Shown piece by piece: positions 17,041 through 32,967 of a DNA stretch of 32,967 nt. The DNA lies in the NCBI GenBank assembly GCA_045863395.1, contig BTVJ01000086.1, forward strand, positions 1 to 32,967. Direction: 5' to 3'. This stretch comes from Myxococcales bacterium (lineage in GTDB: Bacteria; Myxococcota_A; UBA9042; JABWCM01; BTVJ01). A program made the position numbers and the translations under genes. The notes below the pieces were generated by a model. The model did not search any database and was not told the origin of the DNA. It saw only the letters and a list, made by a program, of their open reading frames with translations. How positions within the stretch are numbered: position 1 is the stretch's first letter; every line of letters starts with the position of its first letter.

Positions 17041-17240
17041 GCCCACCGGCCCACCTCCTTCGGAACGTGGCCCAGCTTGCCGAGGCGCGAGAGCAGCTCG
17101 TGGTACCCCTCGCGCCGGACGCCGGCGGTGTCCTCGGCCGGGCGCGCGACCACGAGGCGGGCGATTGCAGGATCCGAGAGGAGCTGCTCCATGACTGTCG
17201 GCTCCGCACGGAACCAGAGGAGATTTCTGTGGATCTTCAT
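17037..17240 (-). CDS. 67-aa small protein, possibly p8/Tfb5-like fold
   Basis: Fills the gap between XPB and the Helicase_C_3 gene exactly, with ATGA and GTGA overlaps at the two ends. Confidence 0.8.
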   Translation of the reverse strand: MKIHRNLLWFRAEPTVMEQLLSDPAIARLVVARPAEDTAGVRREGYHELLSRLGKLGHVPKEVGRWA

Positions 17241-18895
17241 GGACGCGCGTCCTCGATGCGGTAGTCGTAGCCCTGCTCCACCAGGAAGAGCTGGCGGTGG
17301 TGGGCCAGGTCCTGCTCCACCGTGTCGCGGCTGACCAGGGAGTAGAAGTGGGCCTGGTTCTCTCCCTTCTTGGGGCGGAGCAGGCGGCCAAGGCGCTGGG
17401 CCTCTTCTTGTCTGGAGCCAAACGTGCCCGAGATCTGGATGGCGAGGGAGGCGTCCGGCAGGTCGATGGCGAAGTTGGCGACCTTGGACACCACGAGGCG
17501 CTGCTCGCGCCCCTCGCGGAAGGCGTCGTAGAGCTCCGCGCGCTTGCGCTGCGGGGTGTCACCGGTGAGCAGCGGGGCGCGCAGCGCGTGGGCCACGGCC
17601 TGGAGCTGGTCGACGTAGGTCCCGATGATCAGCGCCTGGGCGTCCGGGTGGCGGGCGAGCAGCGCGCTGACGACCGGCAGCTTGCGCGGGTTCTCGGAGG
17701 CGACCCGGAAGCGCAGGCGCTCCGGGGCCGCTGCGTACTGGCGGCCCAGCTCCGGTGCCATCGGGACTCGCACCTCGGAGCAGGTGGCCCTCGCGATCCA
17801 CCCCTGCCGCTCCATGGTCTTCCACGGGATGTCTAGCTTTTTGGGCCCGATCAGGGCAAAGACGTCGCCCTCCAGGCCGTCCTCGCGCACCAGCGTGGCG
17901 GTCAGTCCCAGGCGGCGCCGCGCCTGCACCTCTGCGGTCACCCGGAAGACCGGTGCCGGCAGCAGGTGCACCTCGTCGTAGACGATGAGGCCGAAGTCCC
18001 GCTGGCGGAACAACCCGAAGTGGGTGAAGTCGTCTCCCTTGCGCTTCCGGTGGGTCAGGATCTGGTAGGTGGAGACCGTGACGGGGCGCACCTCCTTGGC
18101 CTGCCCCGTGTACTCTCCAATCTGGTCCGGGGTCAGGTGGGTCTTGTCCAGCAGCTCGTCGATCCACTGGCGCACGGCGGTCCCGCTGGTGGTCAGGATC
18201 AGGGTCGAGGCGCCGACCCGCTGCATGGCGGCGATGCCGACGATGGTCTTGCCCGCCCCGCACGGGAGCACGATGACGCCGGAGCCCCCGTGGGCCGCGC
18301 CCGAGGCGTGATACACGTCCACGGCCTCTTGTTGATAGGGGCGAAGCGAGAATGGGAGACCGGCGAGGGTCTGCGCGCGGGCCTGGATGGACAGCGGCTC
18401 GCCGGGAGTGTAACCCGCGAGGTCGACCGCCGGGAAGCGGGCGCGGATCAGGGCCTGCTTGAGGGCGCCGCGCGCCAGCAGGGTGGCGCGGAACGTGCGA
18501 TGCGAGACAAACTCCAGGTGCTCGCGCAGCTCGTCGCGGAGCCACAGCTCCTCGGCCAGCTCGGGAGTGTCCGCCTCCAGGCGAAGCTCGCCGTCGGACA
18601 CGGTCAGGACGACGCGGCCGAAGCGCGCGGCGATGGAGAGAATCTCGTCTTTGACGTGATGGGGTAATGGGTATCTGGAGTGTCTCGTCAGTGCGTCGAC
18701 CATCTCGCCCGCGGGCACTCCCCCGGCGGCCGCGTTCCAGATGGACAGCGGCGTGACTCGCCAGGTGTGCATGTGCTCCGGGGACTTCACCAGCTCCGCG
18801 AAGCGGCAGATGTCGTTGCGCGCGTCCTCGTGGCCGGGGTGGTCCACCTCCAACAGCAGGGTGAGGTCCCCTTGGACGATGAGCGGTCCGGTCAT
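17237..18895 (-). CDS. xpb: DNA repair helicase XPB (Ssl2/Rad25/ERCC3 family), 552 aa
   Basis: N-terminal PLIVQGD..LLEVDHP..FAEL.KSPEH.HT; LRPYQ; LPCGAGKT; DEVH; LGLTATLVREDG (RED motif); QISGTFGSRQEEAQRLGRLLR. Confidence 0.95.
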   Translation of the reverse strand: MTGPLIVQGDLTLLLEVDHPGHEDARNDICRFAELVKSPEHMHTWRVTPLSIWNAAAGGVPAGEMVDALTRHSRYPLPHHVKDEILSIAARFGRVVLTVSDGELRLEADTPELAEELWLRDELREHLEFVSHRTFRATLLARGALKQALIRARFPAVDLAGYTPGEPLSIQARAQTLAGLPFSLRPYQQEAVDVYHASGAAHGGSGVIVLPCGAGKTIVGIAAMQRVGASTLILTTSGTAVRQWIDELLDKTHLTPDQIGEYTGQAKEVRPVTVSTYQILTHRKRKGDDFTHFGLFRQRDFGLIVYDEVHLLPAPVFRVTAEVQARRRLGLTATLVREDGLEGDVFALIGPKKLDIPWKTMERQGWIARATCSEVRVPMAPELGRQYAAAPERLRFRVASENPRKLPVVSALLARHPDAQALIIGTYVDQLQAVAHALRAPLLTGDTPQRKRAELYDAFREGREQRLVVSKVANFAIDLPDASLAIQISGTFGSRQEEAQRLGRLLRPKKGENQAHFYSLVSRDTVEQDLAHHRQLFLVEQGYDYRIEDARP

Positions 18896-19902
18896 CTCGG
18901 CTTCCTGGTGCGGGTGCGTGCGGGCGCTGTGTTCCGTTGGGGTTGTGACGAGGACGCGAGCCGCTTCGCCCACCCGTGGAGGTGCGGGTGGTCGGGTGCC
19001 AGGCGGGCGGCCAGCTCGGCGATGGCCATGGAGACCTCCTCGGCGCGGCCGGCGGCCCGGGCGGACTTCTCCAGGGAGACCAGCATGGGCGTGTAGGCCG
19101 GGCGGCCCGGGAGCGCGACGAGGAACAGGTCCGTCGCCAGGTCGAACGCTTGGAGCTTGTGCGCCTTCCACCCCGCGTCCCCTGCCACGTCGGGCGGCAG
19201 CGCTGCGAGCCGCTCTCGCACCACCACTCGCGCCGTTTCGCCTTCTCCGGCGCGCAGGAGCTTCTCGAGGTACGCGGCGAACAGCGCGTCGGGGATGCCC
19301 TCGCCGAGGTCCACCATGGTCTCCACCTCGTCGCGGAGGTCGCTGGTGCCCATTTCCTGCCCGCGGAGCCTGGTGCGGGTCTCCTGCGCCCAGGTGTCCT
19401 CGGGGTGGCGAGCCAGGTGCTCGTCCAGCCACTGGAGGGCGCGCGCCAGGTCTCCCCGCCGCTCCCAGAGCCACGCCAGGTCCTGTGCGACCTCGGGGTG
19501 CGCGGGCCAGAGGGGCGTGAGCAGGGCGTCGGCCTCGTCGAGCTTGCCGAGATGGGTCAGCACCTTGCCGAGCCAGCGCTCCCGAGACCAGTGGGGGAAG
19601 ATGGCGAGGCTCTCCCGCAGGTCCCGGGCGGCGTCTGCCCAGGCGCGCTCCCGGCACGCAGCCCGGCCGCTCCAGTAGAGGATGCGCCCCGACGCCGGGT
19701 ACAGCTCCCGGAGCTGCCGCGCCAGCCGCCGCGCCTCCGCCGGGTCCGCGAACCGCACGAGCCGCTCCAGCTCCAGTGCGCGCGTCGCCTCGGACAGCGG
19801 GTCCTCGTCGCGAAGCCGGGCGAGCAGGTCGTCAGCGGCCCCCCGGTCGCCCCTCCTGAGGGCGTGCTGAAGGTTCCGTCGAAGCACTTCCACGTAGGCC
19901 AT
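18892..19902 (-). CDS. Tetratricopeptide-repeat protein
   Basis: Helical TPR-like repeats (YWSGRAA..WADAARDLRESL; WLGKVLTHLGKLDEADALL; DLAWLWERRGDLARALQWL). The stop overlaps the XPB start (ATGA, 18892-18895). An alternative GTG start is at 19989. Confidence 0.75.
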   Translation of the reverse strand: MAYVEVLRRNLQHALRRGDRGAADDLLARLRDEDPLSEATRALELERLVRFADPAEARRLARQLRELYPASGRILYWSGRAACRERAWADAARDLRESLAIFPHWSRERWLGKVLTHLGKLDEADALLTPLWPAHPEVAQDLAWLWERRGDLARALQWLDEHLARHPEDTWAQETRTRLRGQEMGTSDLRDEVETMVDLGEGIPDALFAAYLEKLLRAGEGETARVVVRERLAALPPDVAGDAGWKAHKLQAFDLATDLFLVALPGRPAYTPMLVSLEKSARAAGRAEEVSMAIAELAARLAPDHPHLHGWAKRLASSSQPQRNTAPARTRTRKPR

Positions 19903-19985: not shown

Positions 19986-20831
19986 TCACGCCTCGGGATC
20001 GAGGCCCAACTCACGGAGGCGCGCGGCGAGGCGGTCGGCGCGGGCGGCCTCCTGCGCGGCGCGGGCAGCCTCGTGCTCGGCGCGGGCAGCCTCGTGCTCG
20101 GCGCGGGCAGCCTCCTGTTCGGCGCGGGCAGCCTCGTGCTCGGCGCGGGCAGCCTCCTGCTCGGCGCGGCTCTTCTGCTCCAGCCCCCTGGCACGCTCCA
20201 CGGCCAGGCGGGGCCGCTGCTCGCCCTGGTACCAGATGTCGAGCTTGTGCCCGTTCTCCCACTGGTCGCGAGGGAGGACCCTCAGCTCCAGGCCCGGCAC
20301 GGAGCGCGACTGCACGGAGCCCCCCGGCGCCAGGTCGTGGTGCTCATAGCGCTCTCCCGAGAGCTCGCACCAGACCAGGGAGCGCGCGTCGTCCAGGTCC
20401 GGAAAGACAAGCGCAAACTCGGGGACCTGGCTGAACTCGTTGAGGTATCTCTGGAAGTGGATGTCCTTCGTCTCCTTCCGGGGGTCGTTGGTCGACACGA
20501 TCTCGATGACGAGGAGCAGATCCTCGGACGTGATGCGGTTGCGGTCCACGGGCCGGGCGAAGACACAGTCGCCGTAGTAGGCCCTCTGCTCCATGGTCTC
20601 GGGGTGGATGTACCAGATGGGATGGTCCGAGAGGAAGATGAGCCCCGCCTCCCGGGCGATGGCCCGCAGGATGGTCGTGGTCTCGCCAATCATCAGCTCG
20701 TGCGCGGTACTCTGCGGCACTTGCAGGGCCTCGTCGAAGTAGGGGATCCCATCGAAGGCGGTGTGGAGGCGCCGCTCGAGGTAGGGGCGATCCGGGGGGT
20801 AGATGCGGTAGCTGGTCATCGCCTGAGACAT
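19986..20831 (-). CDS. Uma2-family (PD-(D/E)XK-like) putative endonuclease with coiled-coil tail
   Basis: PQSTAH, YYGDCVF, LLLVIEIVS; tail RADRLAARLRELGLDPE is typical of the family. Confidence 0.75.
   Translation of the reverse strand: MSQAMTSYRIYPPDRPYLERRLHTAFDGIPYFDEALQVPQSTAHELMIGETTTILRAIAREAGLIFLSDHPIWYIHPETMEQRAYYGDCVFARPVDRNRITSEDLLLVIEIVSTNDPRKETKDIHFQRYLNEFSQVPEFALVFPDLDDARSLVWCELSGERYEHHDLAPGGSVQSRSVPGLELRVLPRDQWENGHKLDIWYQGEQRPRLAVERARGLEQKSRAEQEAARAEHEAARAEQEAARAEHEAARAEHEAARAAQEAARADRLAARLRELGLDPEA
20037..20162. repeat. Coding tandem repeat, 6 x 21 bp (heptad E[QH]EAARA)
   Basis: Unit ggcgcgggcagcctc[g/c]tgctc at 20037, 20058, 20079, 20100, 20121 and 20142, with minor variants in some units. 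Confidence 0.92.
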
Positions 20832-20917
20832 GAACACCAAGGTAGACGATGGGCGGGGAGGGGTCAACCGGCGGGGTGCCCTCCATCACGCGGGGAGGAG
20901 CGGAGCTCGATCCCCGT

Positions 20918-22213
20918 TCATGGCGCCTGCCTCCTCGTATCCACGAAGTCGACGTCGGGGAGCTCCACCTCCCAGGCGTCCGCGGCCAGCACGTCGAGGC
21001 GCGGAGAGTCCCGGGCCCGGAACGCGGCCTTGATGGCGTCGGCCAGGGCGGCACCCAGGTCGTCCGGCCGGGGCACCCGGATGCGCCGCAGACACTGCGC
21101 CTGGAAGCGCAGGTAGCCCCCGCGCATCTTCACCGTGTAGGACCACACGAAGAACAGGGCCATGCGCGAGCTGAGGAGCCCGCCGAGCACCTCCAGGTCC
21201 CACACGTCCGAGGTGACGAAGTACAGGTTGTGGTGCGGGTGGTAGCCCCCCGCGTCGTAGACGACCTCGTTGGCCCCCGCGATGTCCGGTATGAGCGGCT
21301 TGGGGGTTCCGACCAGGCCCGGATGGACCCGGTCGATGGTGCGCAACCAGTGGGACGGGCTCTTGCGCGCGACGTCCCGGCGCCGCACGGCGGCGAAGCG
21401 GTCCAGATGACGCGCGAGCCGCGGGTAGCAGCCGATGTCGATGGCCCTGCCGTCCTCGCCGAAGGTGTCGATGACGAAGCGCCCCGCGTCACGCACTGCC
21501 CCGGCGTGGAGATCCTCGCGCATGACCAACGGCACGAGGCGGTGGGCCTCGATGTCTGCCGAGGAGTCAACGATGCAGGCGGCGTCGGCGCCGGTGGCGA
21601 CCCCGATACCGACACGGGTCCTGCCGACCTCCTCCAGCGCCGGGAGGCGGGCCTCCAGATCGCGGAGGAGTCGCAGGTGGGCGGGGCTGCTCAACACCCA
21701 CGGATCTGGGCCCTCGAACCAGGTCGGGTAGACGGCGACGTCCACCCCCACCGCATCGAGGCCCCGCAGTGCTCGCGAGGCCGCGTCGCTCTCGGCTGCG
21801 CTGGCCGTGGTGAGCCTGGCGACGGAGACCGCCGTGCCAGGGCGCCGCCCGATGCAGAAGATGGACGGGTAGGCGATGACCTCTGACTCGAACGGAGACG
21901 CGTCGTGGAGATCGACGTAGGACCTCACGGCGTACCGGCGCGTCACCAGCTCGCGAAGGGGCGCCCCATACCGGTTCAGGGTCCAGCGGACGGCGCAGAC
22001 GTAGGACAGCATGCCGTCCTCGCCGAGCAACCGGAGCCCGCGCTCGATGAACGCGACGTACAGGTCGGCCCTGTCGAACAGGGTCGCGTAGCGCCGCCGG
22101 TACTCAGCCTGCAGGGTTGGTGCGAGCTGCTCGGTGCGGACGTAGGGTGGGTTCCCCACCACGACGTCGAAGGGCGGCAGCGGGGCGAGCAGGAAGACGC
22201 CTTCACGAAGCCA
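20918..22213 (-). pseudogene. 5'-truncated N6-adenine DNA methyltransferase (gamma class, PaeR7I/XhoI-like)
   Basis: FDVVVGNPPYVR, RADLYVAFIERGL, RW..NRYGAPLR, VGIGVATGAD, PHHNLYFVTS, MRGGYLRFQAQ.LRRIRVP. No SAM-binding motif I (xEPxxGxG) upstream; homology starts abruptly at WLREG. Confidence 0.8.
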
Positions 22214-22284
22214 GCGCGAATGTGTCCTTGGAGAACGCCGCGGGCAGCCGGAGCTGGAGTGCAACAGGATGCCCCCAAACTCAC

Positions 22285-23066: not shown

Positions 23067-23108
23067 CCTCACGGGGCACCGCGGCCCCCCCCAAGCAATG
23101 AGGTGACC

Positions 23109-23420
23109 ATGGACTGGTTTCGAGTGACCTGCGACGAGGAGGAGGTCCGGGCGGACGTGGCGCCTCCGGGAGGGGTCGCCTGGTCCCGCGCCATTCGCTG
23201 GGGCTCCGTCGAGCGGGTCTGTTTCGAGGCGGGAGGGCTCTGGGAGTCTGACACCTGGTACCTCTTCGAGCGGGGGGAGCCCCACAGCTTGATGATCCCG
23301 AGCGGCGCACCGGGAACCGGCGAGCTGCTCGACGCGCTGATGGCGCGCGGGCTGTTCCCGGCGGAGCTGGCCATCCGGGCGGCCACCGGCGAGGGGCTGA
23401 CCTGCTGGCCGACCGAGTGA
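23109..23420 (+). CDS. Hypothetical protein, 103 aa
   Basis: RBS GAGG, GC3-biased codons, globular-looking composition (IRWGSVERVCFE). Confidence 0.65.
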   Translation: MDWFRVTCDEEEVRADVAPPGGVAWSRAIRWGSVERVCFEAGGLWESDTWYLFERGEPHSLMIPSGAPGTGELLDALMARGLFPAELAIRAATGEGLTCWPTE

Positions 23421-23473
23421 CTCCCGCACCACCTCCATGTACAATCGCGCCTCGTTCCGGGGGACGGAGGCCC

Positions 23474-26400
23474 ATGACGACGATTCGCGACCTGGTCGGC
23501 GCCCGCGCACAGCCCACCGTGGTGCGCCTCGAGGAGTCCCTCGACGCGCCGTGGATCACCGAGTCCTACTGCGTCACGCCGGACGTGCGGCGGCATGTGG
23601 ACGCCCTGCGCCACGCCCTCTCTCGCGACGCCGGCACGGGTGCCTTCCTCATCGGGCCCTACGGGTCGGGCAAGTCACACTTCCTCGCGTGGCTCGTTCA
23701 GGCGGTGCGCGCGGGGCGGCTCGGCGAGCCGCTGACCGTGGTCGCCCTGTCGCTGCTGCACTACCCGGCCGAGGCGCGGCTGGAGGACGTCGTCTGCGGG
23801 GCCGCGGGCATCCCCGTCGGCACCGGCGACCGGCGCCCCGCGTGGGCGGCGGCGCTCCAGAGATCCACGGGCGGGCTCCTGCTGGTCATCGACGAGCTCT
23901 CCGAGTTCCTGCGCAGCAAGCCGGACGCCCACCGGTTCAACGAGGACGTGCGCTTCCTCCAGTATCTCGGCGAGCTGGCCGGCGACGGGCGCCTGTTCGT
24001 CGTCTGCGCCATGCAGGAGGCCATCGAGCACACGGGGGAGCTGGAGCACGCCACCTACCGCAAGATCCAGGACCGCTACCCGCTGCGCATGCGGCTGACG
24101 CCCTCGCACGTGCGGACGCTGGTGTCCGAGAGCCTGCTGGTCAAGCGCCCGGGCTATGACGACGCGGTGGCGGAGCGCGTGAGGCAGCTTCGCGCAGCCG
24201 TCCCCGACGCGACCGTGGACTTCGGCGCCCTGGCGTCCATCTACCCGATTCACCCGGCGACCCTGGACCTGCTGGAGGAGGTGCGCGACCGCTTCTCGCA
24301 GGCCCGCGGCGTCGTGGGCTTCGTCACGACGCAGCTCCTCGGGGATCCGGGGCGCGGTATCGCTCCCTTTCTCGATGAGCCTTGGGGGGCGCTGCTGACG
24401 CCAGACGCCATCGTCGCGCACTTCGAAGACATCCTGGAGGTGCAGGCGGAGTTCCAGCCCCTCGCGCAGCAGCTCTTCCCCTGGTACCGGCGCCACATGG
24501 GCGAGCTGTTCGAGACGGAGCGGCTCGCGGAGCTGGCGCACCGGCTCCTCCGGCTGCTGGCGCTCGTCCATCTTTCGCCGCAGCGTGAGCGCCTGACGGC
24601 CGGTGAGGCCGCGAGCTGGCTCCTGTTCGCGGCGAGCCGCACCGACCCCTCGCGGAACCAGGCGATCATCGAGCGCACGTTGGACACGCTGGCGACGCGG
24701 GGCCGGTACATCCGCAAGGAGGCCGGCGGCTACCGCGTGGACGTGGAGGACGACGGCGCCTCCCGCCTCGACCGCGCTCTGGAGCGGGAGCTGGCGGAGC
24801 TGCCGGACGCGGCCATCTGCTTCGAGCTCATCGCGGGCCTGGACACCACCGGGTTTCCCCTCTTCGCGCTGCCCCGCGACGTCTGGCAGTCGTGCAGGAC
24901 GGCCTGGTGCCTCCACGAGCGCCTCTGGTCCCTGTGGGTGGGCAACGAGGATCCGCCGCGCCCTCCCCAGTCACCCGCTCTCGTCGTGCGCCTGCCGTGG
25001 GGGCAGGCCCCGTCGGCCCACGGCTGCACGACCCTGCACCCGGCGCCGCTCCAGCTCACCCCGCCGCTGCGGGAGCTGGCTGCGCTGGCGCGGCTGCGGG
25101 AGCGCCCCCTGGCGCCCGAGCTCGTCGAGCTCGCGGGGCGCCGCATCTCCGAGCGTCTACCGCTGTTCCAGCACGAGCTGCGGGCGTCCCTCGCGGACGC
25201 CAGGGCGGTGCGGCCCACTGGCACCATCGACAAGGCCCTCCCGCTGGGTCCCCGCGACGGGCTGGACGACTGGCTCGGGCGGTGGGCGCTCGGGATGCTC
25301 CAGCGGGACTTCCCCCAGTTCGAGCGGCTGGCTCCCGCGGAGGGCCCGCTGCCCAAGGAGGCATGGCGGGAGCTCGTGCGCTGGGGCCTGGAGCACGACC
25401 TGGGGGACCCGGACGCCCCGCAGCTCGTCCGGTCGATCCGGGAGGGCTACCTCGTCCCCATGAAGCTCCTGGAGCGCGCGGGGCGCGGCTACGTGGTCCG
25501 CCGCACCGACACCCACGACCTGGTCAAGCTCGTGCTGCCGCTGCTGGACGGTACGCCATTGCCGAAGACCGTCTATACGCACCTCGCGGGACCGGTGTAT
25601 GGCCTCGTGCCCGACCAGATCCACGCGCTCTTGCTGACGCTGCTGCTGCTCGGCGAGGTGGACATCGAGAAGGGCGGGCGGTCCCTGCGGGAGCTGCACG
25701 ACTCCCTGCCGCTGCCCATCCAGTACGACCGCATCACGGCGGGGCGAGCGCTCCCGCCGGCGGCCCTGACGGCGCTCACGAGCCTCGCCGACGGCCTCCA
25801 CCTCAAGCCGCCCGCACAGTGGACCATCGAGGGGCAGCGGCAGGTGATCGGGCGCCTGACCGACGTCATCCGAGCACGCGCCGAGCGCCTGCGGCCCCTG
25901 CTGCCGCGCCTGGAGGGGGCGCTGTCCGAGCAGGCGCGGGAGGTGCTCGCGTGGAGCGATGCGTTGAGCGGCGAAGAGCGCCTCGCGGCCTTCGAGGCGC
26001 TGCTGGTCCGCGCAGGGTCGGCGCCGCGCATCCTGGAGCGCCTCGGCTTCATGGCCGACCTCCCGGAGCGCTTCGAGCGACAGGTGACGGAGGTCGGGCG
26101 GATGCGTCACCTCCTGTCCCAGCCGGGCCTCGCGGATGAGGGCGTCGAGGAGCCGCCCCCGCTGGACCGTCCGGACGCCGTGGACGCCTGGATCTCCCGC
26201 GCGCGCTCCGTCGTCGCGGCCTATGCTGCCCGCTACCGGGAGGCCCACGACGCCTGGTGGGCGGCGCGGGCCGACCACCCGGCCTGGACCTGGCACCCAC
26301 CGGCGGTGGCATGGTCCAAGCACGCAGGAGTGGACGCCGATGCATGGAGACGTGCGCGGGAGGCCCTCCGCCGTTGCGCTGGGCTCGGCCCCCTCGACTT

Positions 26401-27640
26401 CCAGTCCCGGTGCGCCTGCGGCTTCGACGGGGAGCGAGCGCCCGCAGGAGACGGCCTCGACGCGCTCGCCGCCATCCGGGACCGTGTCGAGCGGGAGCTG
26501 CGGGCCGTGTTCTCCCAGGCCGAGGTGCGTGCGAGAGTTCGGACCTGGGCGGAGATCGAGCCTGCTGCGATGGCGTATGTCGAGGGGCAGGCCGACTGGC
26601 CCACCGTCGAGGATCTGCGAGGCTTCGACGAGCACCTGGGCGGGGTGGACGTGGTGCGGGCGGTGGGCGCGGGCGCGCTCCTCGAGGGCCTCTTGGATCG
26701 CACCTGGGAGCCGGCGGCCCTCTCCAGCGCCCTGGCCGAGCGCGTCCAGGCCGTCGGAGCGCGGCGAGTTCGCCTGGAGGCGCCCGAGGCCGCGGGCCTG
26801 CTCCCCTGGTGTGTAGAGCAGTGCCTGCGCCACGGGGAGCCGCTGCCCGCGGGAGTCGACGTGACGGGCGTCCCGATCCCGGCCGCGTGGGTGTCTCCAG
26901 CAGCGCTCGAGCGCCTGGAGTCGCTGGGCCTCGGCGCCGCAGCGACTGCGGTGCTCCGACTGTTGGTGGACGGGGCGCTCCCCGCCCCGGACCGCCCCTC
27001 TCCCCTGGTGGCCGCTGCGCTCGCTACCAGAGAGCCGACGCTTCCCCTGCCGCCCGCCGCCCTGGCCACCCTGGCCGAGCGGCTCTACCGGCACCACGAG
27101 GCCATCTGGGCCGCGGCTCGCGACCGCTGGCTCCAGCGCCTCGACGCCCTGGCCACCACCCCGCTGAGCGAGCCGTGCCTGCCGGTGGAGGCGGTGGTGC
27201 GGGCCCACCCGGATCACTCGTGGCTTGTCGTCGACGCGCTGGGCCTGCCGCTGCTCGGCCCACTCGTGGAGTCGCTTCGGACCCTGCTTCCGGGCTATGC
27301 GCTGGACCGCACCCTGTTCGCGGAGGCGCCTCGGGCCACCACCACCGACGCCTTCTACCGCCGCCTGGCGGAGGCGGGAGTGAACCACCCCTTCGAGAAA
27401 GTGGACGCCCTCGACGGCCTGCTCCACGGGCGCTCACTGCCGCTCGACGATCTCTGGCGAATCGCGGCCGCGGAGCTGGGCGCCGCGCTGTCCAGCGTGC
27501 GGCCCCGCCTCGGGCCCCTCCTCCTCGTCACTGCCGATCACGGCTTCCGCCTGGCCCCAACCGGCCGTGGCTACACCCACGGCGGTCCCTCCACCCTGGA
27601 GCGCACGGTGCCGGTCCTGCTCCTGCGTCGGGCGGGGTAG
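23474..27640 (+). CDS. BrxC/DUF6079-like P-loop ATPase fused to a C-terminal PglZ-like alkaline-phosphatase-fold domain, 1388 aa
   Basis: RBS GGAGG; Walker A GPYGSGKSH (from 23654); Walker B LLLVIDELSEFLRSK; FLQYLGE; YPIHPATL; C-x11-CxCGF. C-terminal VVDALG / TTT / DGLLH / TADHGF / THGGPSTLERTVP. Confidence 0.8.
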   Translation: MTTIRDLVGARAQPTVVRLEESLDAPWITESYCVTPDVRRHVDALRHALSRDAGTGAFLIGPYGSGKSHFLAWLVQAVRAGRLGEPLTVVALSLLHYPAEARLEDVVCGAAGIPVGTGDRRPAWAAALQRSTGGLLLVIDELSEFLRSKPDAHRFNEDVRFLQYLGELAGDGRLFVVCAMQEAIEHTGELEHATYRKIQDRYPLRMRLTPSHVRTLVSESLLVKRPGYDDAVAERVRQLRAAVPDATVDFGALASIYPIHPATLDLLEEVRDRFSQARGVVGFVTTQLLGDPGRGIAPFLDEPWGALLTPDAIVAHFEDILEVQAEFQPLAQQLFPWYRRHMGELFETERLAELAHRLLRLLALVHLSPQRERLTAGEAASWLLFAASRTDPSRNQAIIERTLDTLATRGRYIRKEAGGYRVDVEDDGASRLDRALERELAELPDAAICFELIAGLDTTGFPLFALPRDVWQSCRTAWCLHERLWSLWVGNEDPPRPPQSPALVVRLPWGQAPSAHGCTTLHPAPLQLTPPLRELAALARLRERPLAPELVELAGRRISERLPLFQHELRASLADARAVRPTGTIDKALPLGPRDGLDDWLGRWALGMLQRDFPQFERLAPAEGPLPKEAWRELVRWGLEHDLGDPDAPQLVRSIREGYLVPMKLLERAGRGYVVRRTDTHDLVKLVLPLLDGTPLPKTVYTHLAGPVYGLVPDQIHALLLTLLLLGEVDIEKGGRSLRELHDSLPLPIQYDRITAGRALPPAALTALTSLADGLHLKPPAQWTIEGQRQVIGRLTDVIRARAERLRPLLPRLEGALSEQAREVLAWSDALSGEERLAAFEALLVRAGSAPRILERLGFMADLPERFERQVTEVGRMRHLLSQPGLADEGVEEPPPLDRPDAVDAWISRARSVVAAYAARYREAHDAWWAARADHPAWTWHPPAVAWSKHAGVDADAWRRAREALRRCAGLGPLDFQSRCACGFDGERAPAGDGLDALAAIRDRVERELRAVFSQAEVRARVRTWAEIEPAAMAYVEGQADWPTVEDLRGFDEHLGGVDVVRAVGAGALLEGLLDRTWEPAALSSALAERVQAVGARRVRLEAPEAAGLLPWCVEQCLRHGEPLPAGVDVTGVPIPAAWVSPAALERLESLGLGAAATAVLRLLVDGALPAPDRPSPLVAAALATREPTLPLPPAALATLAERLYRHHEAIWAAARDRWLQRLDALATTPLSEPCLPVEAVVRAHPDHSWLVVDALGLPLLGPLVESLRTLLPGYALDRTLFAEAPRATTTDAFYRRLAEAGVNHPFEKVDALDGLLHGRSLPLDDLWRIAAAELGAALSSVRPRLGPLLLVTADHGFRLAPTGRGYTHGGPSTLERTVPVLLLRRAG

Positions 27641-27686
27641 GGGCTGCGACCCTGCCCCGCGGGCGCTCACGGGTCTCGCCGGACGC

Positions 27687-30311
27687 CTACTTCCCCGTCA
27701 TGACGCGCCACGTCCCGGGGGTCACCGAGCCGACGAACTGGAGGCCGTCGAGGATCACCGCGCTGTCATAGATGCCGTCGCCCGTGTCGTGGACGTGGAA
27801 GGTAAGGGTGAACATCTCGCCCGGCTCGATGGGCCACTCGGTGACGAGCCACCCGGTGGACGAGCCCGAGTCTTGGGAGTCCGCACCGGCGTTCGCGGCG
27901 CAGGAGAAGCCGGTCCCGGAGATGTTCGTCGTCGCCTTGCCCTCCGGGCAGCCGTTGAGCCAGCAGCACTCGGAGAGCGCCGTGTTGATGGCGATGTAGC
28001 AGTAGCGCTGCCGGGGATTGCAGAACTGCATGCCAGGGCTGCAGACGATATCGTAGTAGGCATCGGGGTCGCGGCACTCGGTCACGTTGATCACGGTGGG
28101 GACGCCCCCATTCGTAGAGCCGGCCTCGAGCACCGCGTAGAACTTGTCGTTGTAGGACGAGCCCACGAAGTCGTCATACTCCTCCGAGAAGAACACGTGC
28201 CGGAACCGGATGCCGTTGGCGCCCGGCGGGGCCCGCAGCACGAGCTTCCACTCCATGGCGTCGTAGATGGCCGCGCCGCCCTTCTGGAAGCCGTCCTGCG
28301 CGCTGTGGCCGCCCATGTCCTGGCTGTGGGTGGTGCCCAGCGCCGGCCCTGTGGCCATCACCGCGTAGGTGCCGCCGACCTGGGGCTCCAGGTCGTTGGT
28401 CTTGTCGCCGTAGTGGGCGACCGCGGCGAAGGTTCCGCCCGTGGACGAGCTCGTCGGGGACGTGTAGGTCTGGCTCACCAGCGTCGGGGCACAGACGTCC
28501 AGGGCGCAGGCCATGGCGTCGAGGGTGTCTCCCGTGCCCTTGCAGCCCCCGCAGCCGAGGCCGATGGGCGCCGCGCCGGTGCCGCCCGTGGGGTAGCGGT
28601 CGGCCTGGCCCTCCTCGAACACCTTGCGGTACGCCTCCAGGGAGGCGAGCAGCTCCTGGAGGTCCGTGTCCCCGACGAGCACGGCCAGCGCCGCCTTGAC
28701 CGCCGCGATGCCCACGTCGATGCGGGAGGCGCCAGCGGCCCCTTTCAAGGTCTGCGTCTCCTGGAGGGCCTCCGCATAGGCGACCACGGCGTCACCCTTG
28801 CGCAGGAGCGCCGACTCGCCCGCCAGGAGCGCCGTGAAGCTCGCCTCCCAGGTGTCGGTGCGGGGCTCGCGGGTCACCGGGTCCTCCCAGGTCGCCTTCA
28901 CGGAGACTGCCTCCTCTCCAGTGAGCGACGCCGGGTCACAGGACTCGATGAGCTGGTGGAAGATCATGGCGTCGTTGGCCGCGAGATGCTGGGGCTCGAC
29001 CTCTTCGGGATCCGTTGAGACCTGCTCCCCGTGGAAGGCGGTCACCGCGAAGGTGGGCGGCAGGGTGACAGCGACCTGGACGTCGCGGGCGGCGACCTCC
29101 ACGTGCCGCATCAGGCCGTCGCCGAACACGCTCCACGCCTCGGCGCCGTCGTCCAGGAACACGTAGGCGCCCTTGCCTGCGTCGGTCACGGCGTTCATCA
29201 GGCGGTCGTTGTAGTTCCAAGGGTCGCCGACCCCGATGCCCATCAGGTAGATGGCCTCGCCGTTGGCGTCCTTGGCGGCACCAACGATGAGCGCCTCGTC
29301 CGCCTCCCCCACGTTGGCGCCACCGTCGCTCACGAGGATGACCCGATTGACGCGCTCCGTCCCGAAGCCCTCCTTGGCCAGCGCGTAGGCGGCCTTCAGC
29401 CCTGCCGAGAAGTCCGTGAGCCCGTCCGCTGCGAGGGCGTCGCACTGGGCCGCGAGGGTGCCGTCGTCCGGGCCGGTCATCACGAGGTTGTCCACCAGGG
29501 TCTTCGGAGCGCCACCCCAGGTGATCAGTGAGAAGGCGTCGCCGGTCCCGAGGGAGCCGACCAGCCCCTTGCAGGCCTCGCGGGCGCGGTCGATGCCGCG
29601 GTGTCCGGGCGTCCCCCAGCCCATGGACGACGACGTGTCGACGGAGAGCACCGCATTGAGACGCCGCCGCGTCGCCGCATCGTAGTCCGGTGCGCGCACG
29701 CCGACCTGGAGCGCGTAGGAGCCGTCGCCCGTCTCGCGGAGCTGGGCGCTGACCGCGACGTGGCCGGGCTCCGCCGCCGGGTAGTCGAACGTGTAGTAGT
29801 TGAGCAGCTCGTAGGTGCGCACGGCCTTCGCCACGAGCTGCCCCTGGGCGATGAGGCCGCGCGCGATGGTGGCGCCCGCCATGGAGTTGGAGTCATCGGC
29901 CGAGACGTAGAGCACCACCGGGTCGGTGGTGTTGCACGTCGCCGGCTCCGGGGTGCCGCCCTCTGGTTCCTCGGGCTCCTCGCTTCCGTTGGACGACCCT
30001 CCCTCGGGTGGCGCAGGGTCGTAGGGTGCGCCCGCGGAGTCGCCGGCGCTACCGAAGCTCGGCCCGTCACCGTAGCTGCCGCCCGTGCCCTGGGAGCTGG
30101 AGCCCCCCCCGCCGCTGTTCTCTTTGCCGCCAGGCGCGCCGACTGCCTGACTGCCGCCCTCGCTGTCGTCCGGCTCGGCGCCCTGCTCGGCGCCAGGTGC
30201 GCTTGGCGAGCCTCCGGTGGCGGTGCCCGTGCCGGGATCCCCTCCACCGCAGGCGGCGATGGTCAGCGAGACGAGCGCGGCGATGGCGCGCGAGCAGCGA
30301 TCCGTCCTCAT
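27687..30311 (-). CDS. Lipoprotein with VWA (YfbK-like) domain and Cys-rich choice-of-anchor-L-like C-terminal domain
   Basis: Lipobox IAAC; Gly/Ser/Glu/Pro linker; MIDAS DTSSSM, T and RVILVSDGGANVG; FFSEEYDDFVGSSYNDKF and DTGDGIYDSAVILD. Confidence 0.8.
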   Translation of the reverse strand: MRTDRCSRAIAALVSLTIAACGGGDPGTGTATGGSPSAPGAEQGAEPDDSEGGSQAVGAPGGKENSGGGGSSSQGTGGSYGDGPSFGSAGDSAGAPYDPAPPEGGSSNGSEEPEEPEGGTPEPATCNTTDPVVLYVSADDSNSMAGATIARGLIAQGQLVAKAVRTYELLNYYTFDYPAAEPGHVAVSAQLRETGDGSYALQVGVRAPDYDAATRRRLNAVLSVDTSSSMGWGTPGHRGIDRAREACKGLVGSLGTGDAFSLITWGGAPKTLVDNLVMTGPDDGTLAAQCDALAADGLTDFSAGLKAAYALAKEGFGTERVNRVILVSDGGANVGEADEALIVGAAKDANGEAIYLMGIGVGDPWNYNDRLMNAVTDAGKGAYVFLDDGAEAWSVFGDGLMRHVEVAARDVQVAVTLPPTFAVTAFHGEQVSTDPEEVEPQHLAANDAMIFHQLIESCDPASLTGEEAVSVKATWEDPVTREPRTDTWEASFTALLAGESALLRKGDAVVAYAEALQETQTLKGAAGASRIDVGIAAVKAALAVLVGDTDLQELLASLEAYRKVFEEGQADRYPTGGTGAAPIGLGCGGCKGTGDTLDAMACALDVCAPTLVSQTYTSPTSSSTGGTFAAVAHYGDKTNDLEPQVGGTYAVMATGPALGTTHSQDMGGHSAQDGFQKGGAAIYDAMEWKLVLRAPPGANGIRFRHVFFSEEYDDFVGSSYNDKFYAVLEAGSTNGGVPTVINVTECRDPDAYYDIVCSPGMQFCNPRQRYCYIAINTALSECCWLNGCPEGKATTNISGTGFSCAANAGADSQDSGSSTGWLVTEWPIEPGEMFTLTFHVHDTGDGIYDSAVILDGLQFVGSVTPGTWRVMTGK

Positions 30312-30360
30312 GATTCGACTCCGTAGAAGCTGTGGTCGGGCCGTGGCCCCGGGCCGCCTG

Positions 30361-30376
30361 TGCAAGCATCTTGCCA
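30361..30376 (-). promoter_or_regulatory. sigma54 (RpoN) -24/-12 promoter
   Basis: Minus strand reads TGGCAAG-ATGC-TTGCA, a near-consensus match with exact GG-N10-GC spacing, about 49 nt upstream of ATG 30311. Confidence 0.75.
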
Positions 30377-30627
30377 TGGAAGCTGCTCAACAGGTACGCG
30401 CCATTGCCTGCGCTGCGGTGTCCCGAAACGAACACAGATTCGCTCGGAGTGTGCACGAACTCTACACAGGTGCAGCAGCGCTGCGACCACGACAGCCGCT
30501 GGCCTTCAGGTGGACGTGGGACCAGAGAAGATCGGAGTTGCAGCGCAGCCTCCCGCGCGCGCACAATCGGAGGCTCACACAGTTGGCGCGACTGGCGGCG
30601 GGCAGCCCCGACGCCCTCGGAGGCCCC

Positions 30628-32967
30628 ATGCGACTCGTGACCGTAGCGAGCTTGCTCGTCCTGCTGGCGACCCAAGTACAGGCCGCCCCCCTTCAGCGCA
30701 CCATGCAGCTCCAGGGCCGCATGGAGACCAGCGCAGGCGCACCCGCCAGCGGGACCTTCGACGTGAAGCTGCGCCTGTTCGCCGCCGAGACGGGTGGTTC
30801 AGCCCTCTACAGCCAGGACGCCAACGGGGTCACGGTCGCCGGTGGGCTCTTCGACGTGGACCTCGGCCCCATCCCCGGCGGGGTCATCGAGGGTGCGGCG
30901 GAGCTCTGGCTGGAGACCCAGGTGGGCCCGGACGTGCTCCCCCGGCGGCGCGTGCGGCCGACGGCCTTCGCGTTGGTCGCGGAGCAGGCCAACACCGCTC
31001 TCGTGGCGGCGGACGTGCAGTGCTCGGGCTGCGTCTCCGCGGGGGAGGTCAGCTTCTCCTACGCTGCCGCCGCGTCACCTGGGGGCGGCGCGACGGACGT
31101 CGCCTGCTCGGGCTGCGTGGAGTCGACGGACCTGGCGGCTGGCGCGGTGGGGACCACGCACCTCCAGGACGGCGCCGTCACCCCCGCCAAGGCCGGCTTC
31201 ACCTACGCGGGCTCGGCCACGCAAGGAGGAGCCGCGACGGCCCTCTCGTGTACGGGCTGCGTGGGGTCGTCCACGCTGGCGGCCAACCTGGCGCTGGCCG
31301 GGACCGTCGGAGTCGCTGGCGGGCTCCACGCCTGCACGGCCAACACGGCGGGCTGCGCGGTGAAGGTGTCCGAGTCGGGGCTCCACGACCACGACGACGG
31401 CTACCTGACCGCGCAGGTGCCGTCGGGCCTGCGGGTGCGGGACACCGCGAACGGGGCATGGCGCCCCGTGGACTTCGGCGGCGGAAACTCCAACGGAGAC
31501 CTGGCCGTCGTCGGCAACCAGACCGTCCAGGGGACCCTGAGCGCCGGGCAGGTGGGCGTCGGCACATCGTCGCCGGCCGCAGAGCTGCACGTGGACGGCA
31601 GCGCCCTGCTCGGAGGCACCAACCGGTACATGAACTTCGGCGGCGCGTCCGGCGCGAGTGGATACGGGCTGCGAGACAACGGCGGGGCGATGCAGGTCAA
31701 GAGCCAGGGCGGCGACTGGGTGGACATCTACCTCCCGCCGCCGCCTGCCTTCGGCTCGGGGGCGGACGGCGCGCTGGCCCTGTCGTCCACCTTCGACCTC
31801 AACGCCAACACGACGGGCGGCCGCACCGTGGCAGACGGGGTCGCCTACCAGGTCGCGAGCCTCACCTCGAGCACCATCGTGGCGACGCAGGCGGCCACCG
31901 GCATCTCGGCGGGCGACAAGGTGCTGCTGGTCCTCGTGCAGGCGACGGGCGCCACCGGCGACGTCGGGAACCACAACCTGCTCGACGTCACCCTCGTCAA
32001 CGGCAGCGCCATCACGGTGAGCAGCGGCTCCATCGACCCGGGCAAGTACGACGAGGGGAGCAACCAGAAGCTCATCGTGCAGCGCGTGCCCCAGTATTCA
32101 TCGGTCACCCTCTCGGCGGGAGGCATGGTCACGGCGTCCGCGTGGGACGGCCTGAACGGGACGGCCACGCCGTCGGGGAAGCTCCGCACCGGTATCGTCG
32201 CCGTGGTGGTGAGCGGCACATTGACCCTCGGCGGAAACGGCATCGACGTGTCACAGAAGGGCTTCCGCGGAGGTCAGCCGGGTGGCCTCGCGCCGGAGGA
32301 CGCCAAGTCGACGGCCATCACGACAGGTGGCGCCGATGGTGGCGCCGGGGGAACGTGGAAGGCGGGTGGCGCGGGCGGAGGCTCCGGGAGCGGCGGCGCA
32401 GGCGGGGGGACGTCAGCCTTCGCAGGCGGCGCCGCGGGCCGAGGGGGCGGAGGCGGAGGCAGCTCCCAGGACCAGAACGGTGCGGGCAACGAGGGCTCGG
32501 GTGGCGGTGGCGCGGCTCCCTACGCGAGTGGGACCAATCACTCGACCGGCCTGAAGCTGACGCTGGGTGGCGGCGCCGCAGCCGGCGGTGGGGGCGGTGC
32601 GGGGGGCATGGGCGCCAGCTACGGCCCGACCTTCGGTGCCGCGAGCGCCAACGGGCTGGGCGGCGTCCACGGCTCGCGCACCCAGTCTCGGGGCGGCAAC
32701 GGCAGCGCGGGAGCCAACGGCGGCGGGCTCGTCCTCGTCTACGCCAAGACCCTCGCGGGGGTCGGGCCCATCCGCGCAGATGGAGGGAAGGGCGGGAGCG
32801 GGGGCGGTGGGGGCGGCGGTACAGGCTACGACGGCTCCGCGGGCGGTGGCGGTGGGGCTGGCGCCAACGGCTCGTCGGGCGGAACCATCTACGTGCGCCA
32901 TGAGCTGTCGGTGGCCACCACCACCTTGTCGGTCGCGGGCGGAGTAGGGGGTGGGGGCGGTGGGGGC
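30628..32967 (+). CDS. Large secreted fibre/adhesin-like Gly-rich protein (3' end outside the window; absent from the ORF track)
   Basis: RBS GGAGG and ATG 30628. Manual translation gives MRLVTVASLLVLLATQVQA|APLQRTMQLQGRM..GLFDVDLG, three C[ST]GCV repeats, VGVGTSSPAAELHVDG, FGSGADG, and then Gly-rich GGGGG tracts. Confidence 0.85.
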   Translation, partial: MRLVTVASLLVLLATQVQAAPLQRTMQLQGRMETSAGAPASGTFDVKLRLFAAETGGSALYSQDANGVTVAGGLFDVDLGPIPGGVIEGAAELWLETQVGPDVLPRRRVRPTAFALVAEQANTALVAADVQCSGCVSAGEVSFSYAAAASPGGGATDVACSGCVESTDLAAGAVGTTHLQDGAVTPAKAGFTYAGSATQGGAATALSCTGCVGSSTLAANLALAGTVGVAGGLHACTANTAGCAVKVSESGLHDHDDGYLTAQVPSGLRVRDTANGAWRPVDFGGGNSNGDLAVVGNQTVQGTLSAGQVGVGTSSPAAELHVDGSALLGGTNRYMNFGGASGASGYGLRDNGGAMQVKSQGGDWVDIYLPPPPAFGSGADGALALSSTFDLNANTTGGRTVADGVAYQVASLTSSTIVATQAATGISAGDKVLLVLVQATGATGDVGNHNLLDVTLVNGSAITVSSGSIDPGKYDEGSNQKLIVQRVPQYSSVTLSAGGMVTASAWDGLNGTATPSGKLRTGIVAVVVSGTLTLGGNGIDVSQKGFRGGQPGGLAPEDAKSTAITTGGADGGAGGTWKAGGAGGGSGSGGAGGGTSAFAGGAAGRGGGGGGSSQDQNGAGNEGSGGGGAAPYASGTNHSTGLKLTLGGGAAAGGGGGAGGMGASYGPTFGAASANGLGGVHGSRTQSRGGNGSAGANGGGLVLVYAKTLAGVGPIRADGGKGGSGGGGGGGTGYDGSAGGGGGAGANGSSGGTIYVRHELSVATTTLSVAGGVGGGGGGG

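Follow-up and report, generated by a model that had tools for sequence, protein, structure and literature searches.

How BrxC controls the PglZ nuclease is an open mechanistic question in bacteriophage exclusion (BREX), and the six proteins of such a system, together with its dependence on methylation, make it difficult to address. A gene in a 32,967-nt stretch of DNA from a Myxococcales bacterium (contig BTVJ01000086.1 of assembly GCA_045863395.1; this full stretch is referred to as the window) joins a BrxC-like ATPase to a minimal PglZ-like domain in one chain, which raises the question of what these two proteins do together outside a BREX operon. We found that the fusion belongs to a bacterial protein family nearly always accompanied by a gene for a small TPR protein, and both the fusion architecture and the TPR partnership are near certain. 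The pair is apparently an undescribed, conserved two-gene derivative of type 3 BREX, and as a natural two-protein version with intact active-site motifs it makes the control of PglZ by BrxC directly testable. As to its role, we lean, at somewhat less than even odds, towards a domesticated BREX core (BrxC fused to a cap-less PglZ, with a TPR partner) that acts in host DNA maintenance.

An independent assembly (run X3, record 32) covers positions 23492-28500 of the window with 11 substitutions and 0 gaps. Since it spans the junction of the BrxC and PglZ parts gap-free, the join is no assembly artefact, and this contig together with 93 further near-full-length homologues rules out a chance read-through as well. 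RNA-library contigs overlap the fusion gene and also most of the rest of the window, and may stem from DNA carry-over.

A preliminary description of the locus, made from its sequence, had reported BrxC/DUF6079-type Walker motifs at the N-terminus of the protein. Indeed, the N-terminus matches DUF6079 (E 7e-20), BREX_BrxC (E 1e-13) and the PADLOC BrxC/SspC models; Walker A is formed by G61-K67-S68 and Walker B by D140-E141, the latter invariant among homologues. K67 and K197/R201 align with K78 and the arginine fingers K326/R330 of Acinetobacter BrxC, and the Walker A/B motifs and arginine fingers place the domain with the ORC/Cdc6-clade AAA+ ATPases of BrxC/PglY (DUF6079). The predicted model of residues 1-899 had a predicted local distance difference test (pLDDT) value of 87, and its top seven Foldseek matches were all BrxC structures, the best being 9zll/9zdx (E ~4e-9), with alignments of ~560-590 columns. 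The order of elements in two models is that of the BrxC layout described in PMC12839542, as read from secondary structure beyond the Foldseek columns. Judged from these models, the BrxC half is complete and type-3-like. The central C-x11-CxC motif that had also been noticed earlier lies in the coiled-coil arm (C968-x11-C980-x-C982, positions 26375-26419), where it is invariant in 73 sequences. Nearly all long homologues carry the Cys motif, the counterpart of which in several type 3 BrxC proteins is C-x13-CxxC; it presumably binds metal.

The C-terminal part was identified as a PglZ domain by its residues, its profile and its predicted fold. Seven metal or nucleophile positions (D1254, T1291, D1314, H1318, D1355, H1356 and H1369), which include the ordered alkaline phosphatase (AlkP) residues recognised previously, are invariant in 52 homologous C-termini, as is E1376, at a mean column identity of 23%. 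This is the D, T, D-x3-H, DH, H set of the AlkP-fold PglZ domain (PF08665). A Pfam search with the C-terminus from the window alone matched no family; 25 of the 52 family C-termini match Pfam PglZ, and a profile of all 52 matches PorX (E 4e-9) and the PglZ structures 9nv3/9zn5. In the predicted model of residues 900-1388 (pLDDT 88), the end of the coiled coil and a terminal element are followed by the PglZ-like region. Structure alignment of this model gave a Z-score of 11.5 with PorX (root-mean-square deviation (rmsd) 3.9, 192 residues aligned) and 10.2 with PglZ 9zn5 (rmsd 4.3, 241 residues aligned), where the matching region is PglZ 301-755; other AlkP enzymes reached at most 6.6. A Foldseek search with the 489-residue C-terminal model returned nothing at E <=0.001, though PorX occupied the top rows. 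An AlkP/PglZ fold at the C-terminus was thus found by both profile and structure alignment, and by analogy the core is probably a metal-dependent phosphodiesterase or nuclease.

The PglZ domain of PorX (7pv7, 8ted) is both the best structural and the best profile match to the fusion core, with the metal ligands in the same order. The seven positions correspond to PorX D239, T272, D361, H365, D415, H416 and H500, of which T272 and H500 are named in PMC12205998 and the others were read off the profile alignment. PorX differs from the fusion in its receiver domain, its lack of an ATPase and its long inserts: the spacing from T to D is 23 residues in the fusion clade versus 89 in PorX, and that from DH to H is 13 versus 84. 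Because spacings of 23 and 13 residues leave no space for it, the cap subdomain must be gone. In line with this, the three-stranded beta insert that forms the PglZ cap is absent from the model, which has only a short hairpin. The fusion likewise has no space for the N-terminal, BrxB-binding domain of PglZ, residues 1-98 of which were crystallised together with BrxB and BrxC of a type 1 system (PMC13326643).

A whole-length search, in which 7992 candidates were scored, yielded 115 proteins. The window's own protein is one of 94 with E <=4e-298, which are mostly ~1430 residues long; 18 are longer relatives (1534-1852 residues), seven of them with Pfam PglZ on record. To sample the genomic loci of the family, we used profile scans, which returned at least 80 loci from genomes and at least 76 from metagenomes; these were recovered with an alignment profile, while a single-protein locus scan found none. 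Removing four duplicates and the BrxC loci that were canonical or unclear left 126 loci of the family. Their hosts include Acidobacteriota, Pseudomonadota, Myxococcota, Bacillota, Actinomycetota and Thermodesulfobacteriota.

The nearest unfused BrxC relatives sit in operons of the order brxF-brxC-pglXI-(brxHII)-pglZ-brxA. A tree of the ATPase region built with FastTree unites the fusions with three unclassified BrxC loci (L137, L141 and L156) at a support of 0.98, among type 3 sequences, and on this phylogeny the fusion descends from type 3, not type 2, BrxC. With type 3 BREX (brxF, brxC of the DUF6079/PF19557 family, pglXI, brxHII, pglZ and brxA) the fusion shares the Cys motif in the coiled coil and a PglZ without C-terminal domains. 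In contrast to type 3 BREX, BrxC and PglZ form one chain, PglXI, BrxF and BrxA are missing, and a TPR partner has been added. Five type 3 BREX loci (L144, L145, L148, L149 and L153) have a BrxC open reading frame (ORF) of ~1410 residues; in L144, its first 155 residues match BrxF, which makes it a BrxF-BrxC fusion.

The TPR gene emerged from a blind clustering of neighbouring ORFs, in which a 300-340-aa TPR protein formed the one dominant family, at 100 loci; apart from TPR genes and helicases, no recurring neighbours appeared in this clustering. A TPR profile built from the clustered ORFs detected the gene at 104 of the 126 loci: within 500 nt of the fusion at 83, within 4.5 kb at 18, and in a position classed by the script as downstream at three, only one of which (L012) is truly so. 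Among the 22 loci without it, 19 have less than 4.5 kb of upstream DNA and only three have the full 4.5 kb. The TPR gene is divergent from the fusion in a short clade and co-oriented, often overlapping, in a long clade. In the window it has been displaced by four inserted genes and is coupled to xpb. Among 41 related genomes, the TPR gene is present in exactly the same three that carry the fusion; it flanks the fusion in four further hits among genomes of the phylum, and in all five tested genomes in which it is missing at the locus, one strong copy lies elsewhere. The preliminary description had called the fusion a single-gene, stand-alone enzyme, a label that does not survive now that the conserved TPR gene has proved to be a near-obligate partner. 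Its suggestion of a link to a TPR-xpb pair held for the TPR gene and failed for xpb: a search of 179 other loci gave 0 matches for xpb versus 50 for the TPR control, and a TPR-xpb operon was rejected as the conserved context.

When fusion residues 205-790, a fragment picked after viewing the conservation profile, were modelled with the TPR protein, the predicted complex scored 0.60 versus 0.00 for the best control. The prediction runs agreed in at least 79% of contacts, with a partner pLDDT of at least 82, and in a benchmark of 157 solved and 215 mismatched pairs, 116 and 2, respectively, attained the mark for this score. The models hint that the TPR protein may bind the lid/winged-helix/alpha+beta region of the fusion. 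A natural TPR-BrxC fusion was not seen among 40 longer matches, a weak test in which all were generic TPR proteins, and the N-terminal extensions of P0010, P0078 and P0088 gave no match to the TPR profile. One locus (L171; G313:C27:522754-526689) has, ~10 kb from the full-length fusion gene, a second copy reduced to its 5′ part (258 aa), which is oriented divergently to the TPR gene.

Within 2.5 kb of the family loci, genes were called with a simple codon-usage script, and 258 of the 269 neighbours were scanned with PADLOC; the other 11 are eight helicase genes or fragments, a kinase, a histidine kinase and a generic TPR gene. The earlier remark that no pglX, brxA, brxB, brxF or brxL adjoins the window gene was borne out for the ORFs scanned. 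BrxA, BrxB, BrxF and BrxL gave no PADLOC match (E 1e-15) in the 258 neighbours, a threshold that very divergent copies could escape. PglX was represented by a single 128-aa fragment, and the PglXI cluster was confined to canonical loci. The loci have brxC and pglZ, as one gene; a self-marking enzyme, be it PglX/PglXI or the products of the type 4 phosphorothioation genes, was not found at them. Neither DUF499 with a methyltransferase and a helicase nor HerA/FtsK with DUF4007 recurs beside the fusion, the ATPase of which is of the DUF6079 family. Because the methyltransferase, BrxA and BrxB/F components are missing, the module stands outside every BREX type, and the homologues occupy neighbourhoods that differ from complete canonical BREX operons.

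A further structural reference is the type 1 core BrxC:BrxB:PglZ (9zll, 9zdx, 9zn5, 9nv3), with which the Walker A/B motifs, the K-x3-R fingers and the PglZ linker and core of the fusion align; the catalytic Thr and His of type 1 PglZ are kept. In the type 1 complex described in PMC13326643, BrxB connects the ATPase of BrxC with residues 1-98 of PglZ, whereas in the fusion both BrxB and that domain are missing and PglZ is attached to the far end of the BrxC coiled coil. The BrxC-BrxB fusion of the type 1 papers (PMC13326643, PMC12205998) is an engineered construct. Type-3 BR and BRC, as presented in PMC12839542, also pair a BrxC-like ATPase and a reduced PglZ in systems other than canonical BREX, and BRC resembles the module in that no N6 methyltransferase is among its listed components. 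They differ in that type-3 BR comprises DUF499, a methyltransferase, a helicase and separate PglZ and iSTAND genes, while BRC requires HerA/FtsK, DUF4007 and STAND; neither is described there with a fusion. The main text of that paper contains neither 'TPR' nor 'RecQ'. No description of a natural BrxC-PglZ fusion or of its TPR partner was found in the literature, which was covered mostly at the level of abstracts, and the supplement of PMC12839542 may list such proteins.

The enzymes of the module likely work as BrxC and PglZ do. According to PMC13326643, type 1 BrxC dimerises through its C-terminus and binds DNA, BrxB links BrxC to PglZ and stimulates it, and BrxA binds BrxC and inhibits DNA binding. 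PglZ nicks DNA irrespective of BREX sites, and both PglZ and PorX cut cyclic and linear oligonucleotides, as stated for the enzymes in PMC12205998. By analogy, the fusion protein would dimerise via the end of its coiled coil and bind DNA through its AAA+ and winged-helix modules, and the two-metal core would cut phosphodiester bonds. The covalent joining of BrxC and PglZ could take over the role of the BrxB bridge, in keeping with the loss of BrxB together with its binding domain on PglZ, and loss of the cap may open the active site to DNA. The complex models are compatible with a TPR protein that gates DNA binding, as BrxA does for BrxC. As the module would have left BREX and lost its methyltransferase, there is no methyl mark to read, and the trigger would therefore be a DNA structure (a stalled fork, an end or a branch) or a protein. 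Its genomic context suggests that it may often act alongside a host helicase, such as a RecQ or Snf2 protein. Overall, this would amount to an ATP-controlled, DNA-structure-directed nuclease in host DNA maintenance. The full course of events is put forward more tentatively still: the BREX hallmark proteins would have been fused, shed their control by methylation, acquired a TPR protein as regulator and been recruited into host DNA repair as an ATPase, coiled coil and nuclease in one chain, a domesticated enzyme passed on within lineages of many bacterial phyla. If it is true, a defence machine has been turned into a housekeeping enzyme.

The alternative that survives best, in our view only a little less likely, is a system against phages or plasmids that does without methylation. 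In that case the TPR protein would sense a phage protein, or be a guard that is displaced by infection, and the released ATPase would let the PglZ core nick invader or host DNA or destroy nucleotides; a BREX derivative of this kind would have a new way of discriminating self from non-self. Both halves of the fusion are, after all, the two conserved components of BREX, and TPR domains act as phage sensors in other systems. The TPR protein also diverges fast, with an identity to the window copy of 13-22% in the long clade versus 32-42% in the short clade, and toxin-antitoxin or Uma2 genes lie beside or inside a few loci, as do Uma2 and a methylase relic in the window. Toxin-antitoxin-type genes stand between the TPR gene and the fusion at L069:8806-9632 and L084:3374-4159 (nucleotidyltransferase with HepT, and a PIN gene, respectively).

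The neighbourhoods are nevertheless poor in defence genes. Specific PADLOC defence matches numbered 4 in the 258 neighbours of the fusion (two Uma2, one PDC-S34 and the PglX fragment) versus 8 in 54 near canonical BREX loci in the same scan (Fisher p 1.4e-4). The control set omits 12 more proteins, which stem from two unclear loci, and takes in genes at a greater distance from the operon, and the loci compared are not independent. The named neighbours are mostly housekeeping genes, including those for PNPase, HflX, RF3, ValS, SerS, AlaS, NuoM/N and S9, to which a Pfam scan added a few toxin-antitoxin and mobile genes. Inheritance within lineages also argues against a defence system: phylum labels on the tree (70 rows) required 25 changes versus 44-55 in 300 shuffles, and the fusion is present as a single copy in 9 of 17, 10 of 61 and 5 of 8 genomes of three families. 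Its GC content was more than 3 points below that of the flanks in only one of 67 loci, and no full-length match was found in 72,556 plasmids or 50,697 phages. Furthermore, the fusion and TPR genes persist when separated, and conservation of the winged-helix region matches that of the ATPase (0.69 versus 0.66), whereas PMC12839542 describes the winged helices of BrxC as variable. A helicase gene lies within 2.5 kb at 19 of 126 loci, versus ~2% expected from the 22 superfamily 2 (SF2)-like genes of the window genome alone; 13 of these loci have a RecQ-type, six an Snf2 and one a Pif1 helicase, L034 having both of the first two. At seven loci of one deltaproteobacterial group (L031, L034, L040, L044, L049, L099 and L101), a RecQ of ~790 residues stands between the TPR gene and the fusion in a three-gene operon. 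The idea that the neighbouring Snf2 helicases are retained BrxHII proteins was not supported: they scored at most 119 bits against BrxHII, versus at least 365 bits among BrxHII proteins themselves.

Several observations weigh against a role in DNA maintenance. The depletion of defence genes weakens to p 0.049 if helicases are counted as defence, and generic matches (ABC ATPases, kinases, ClpB, MotB and helicases) were discounted by judgement. Taxonomic coherence was judged from a tree that had no canonical BREX counterpart as control. Near the window genome the fusion is patchy, occurring in 3 of 41 relatives and 5 of 301 genomes of the phylum, and its flanking genes are not conserved across loci; such patchiness and varying position would suit a defence system. 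Eleven of the 19 helicase loci form a single related group, in which RecQ immediately precedes the fusion, and the independent associations are perhaps only ~7-10. Nothing pointed to SOS regulation: each of four SOS-type boxes stayed within background, with occurrences in 2, 0, 1 and 3 of 91 upstream regions. The characterised BrxC relatives in the literature consulted (PMC13326643, PMC12205998, PMC12839542 and bioRxiv 10.64898/2026.09.23.753747) all act in defence. In the complex benchmark, the pairs that reached the mark at a score of 0.60 or below were 18 of the 157 solved pairs and both passing mismatches. Moreover, the nuclease is not universal in the family: four members (L041:7907-11950, L071:9323-13468, L124:9959-13579 and L182:7551-11663) are complete TPR and BrxC-like pairs without a PglZ core in any frame of the available DNA, from which it appears that TPR plus BrxC may be the minimal unit. 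Three other members are frameshifted. The earlier assignment as a defence or DNA-processing enzyme stands as far as the domains are concerned, apart from its stand-alone character, and the context slightly favours DNA processing. Whether it serves DNA maintenance or defence, the module would provide a two-protein model for BrxC driving PglZ.

It is improbable that the fusion is a phosphodiesterase under ATP control that acts on signalling nucleotides or short RNA, in which BrxC would be a DNA-bound scaffold or switch and the TPR protein an adaptor to another cell machine. This reading draws on PorX as the closest solved fold and on the cleavage of cyclic and linear oligonucleotides by PglZ and PorX, but the cap-forming inserts are almost wholly deleted in the fusion clade, and the neighbourhoods show no recurrent cyclase, receiver or other signalling gene. 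Least probable of all is a module without independent function, one that would supply a single component to a BREX or restriction system elsewhere in the genome: the window genome does have, on contig C3, a type 2 BREX locus of its own and a full-length methylase copy on contig C100, but the Pfam PglZ model, an insensitive one, found only two weak matches in five other, incomplete carrier genomes, the fusion stems from type 3 rather than type 2 BrxC, and the TPR gene is its only constant companion.

Table 1. Features of the fusion gene, its partner and neighbouring genes in the window
Feature	Position	Strand	Remarks
BrxC-PglZ fusion gene	23474..27640	+	1388 aa; single ORF without internal stop
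AAA+ ATPase, BrxC/ORC-Cdc6 type (residues 1-290)	23474..24343	+	motifs, structural alignment
Helical lid, winged helix, alpha+beta domain, further winged helices (residues ~291-760)	24344..25753	+	boundaries from predicted model
Coiled-coil arm (residues ~761-1055)	25754..26638	+	predicted model
Strand-helix-helix-strand element (residues 1061-1102)	26654..26779	+	resembles terminal subdomain described for BrxC (PMC12839542)
Helical linker (residues 1117-1245)	26822..27208	+	aligned structurally to PglZ from residue 301 onward
Minimal PglZ/AlkP core (residues 1246-1388)	27209..27637	+	~143 residues
Promoter-like site GTGACT-17-TACAAT	23417-23445	+	predicted; consensus match only
Ribosome-binding site GGAGG ahead of ATG	23466-23470	+	predicted; consensus match only
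Partner gene, 335-aa all-TPR protein	18892..19899	-	divergent from fusion, ~3.6 kb away; stop overlaps xpb start (ATGA)
xpb helicase	17237-18895	-	local context only
Helicase_C_3 partner of xpb	14845 to ~17046	-	local context; not conserved beside other family members
Uma2-family gene	19986-20837	-	inserted, outside module
N-truncated type II methylase duplicate	20918-22218	-	inserted, outside module
Glutathione peroxidase	to 23066	+	inserted, outside module
105-aa ORF	23103-23420	+	inserted, outside module

The methylase gene of the window is a 5′-truncated copy (86% DNA identity) of a full Eco57I/TaqI-like gene on contig C100, in which NPPY is kept and motif I is gone. The absence of motif I, its nature as a partial duplicate and the mere two weak matches in 179 other loci rule it out as the missing PglX. 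The separate type 2 BREX/Pgl locus of the same genome (L157; G000:C3:221000-240999) contains pglW (partly in view), pglX, pglY, pglZ, brxD and brxHI, with an adjoining gene for a PDC-S37/Hhe-like helicase. Short tandem repeats at positions 20040-20180 (minus strand) encode the Ala/Arg/Glu-rich tail of the Uma2-family protein, and strain variants and contig breaks cluster there; two Uma2 paralogues lie on contigs C2 and C135. Convergent with the fusion is a gene for a lipoprotein-like vWA protein (27687-30377, minus strand) with a C-terminal choice-of-anchor L match. On the plus strand, one or more long ORFs without a Pfam match run from position 30360 to the window end at 32967, and an ORF at the contig start (3-929) has weak HNH and RuvA C-terminal matches.

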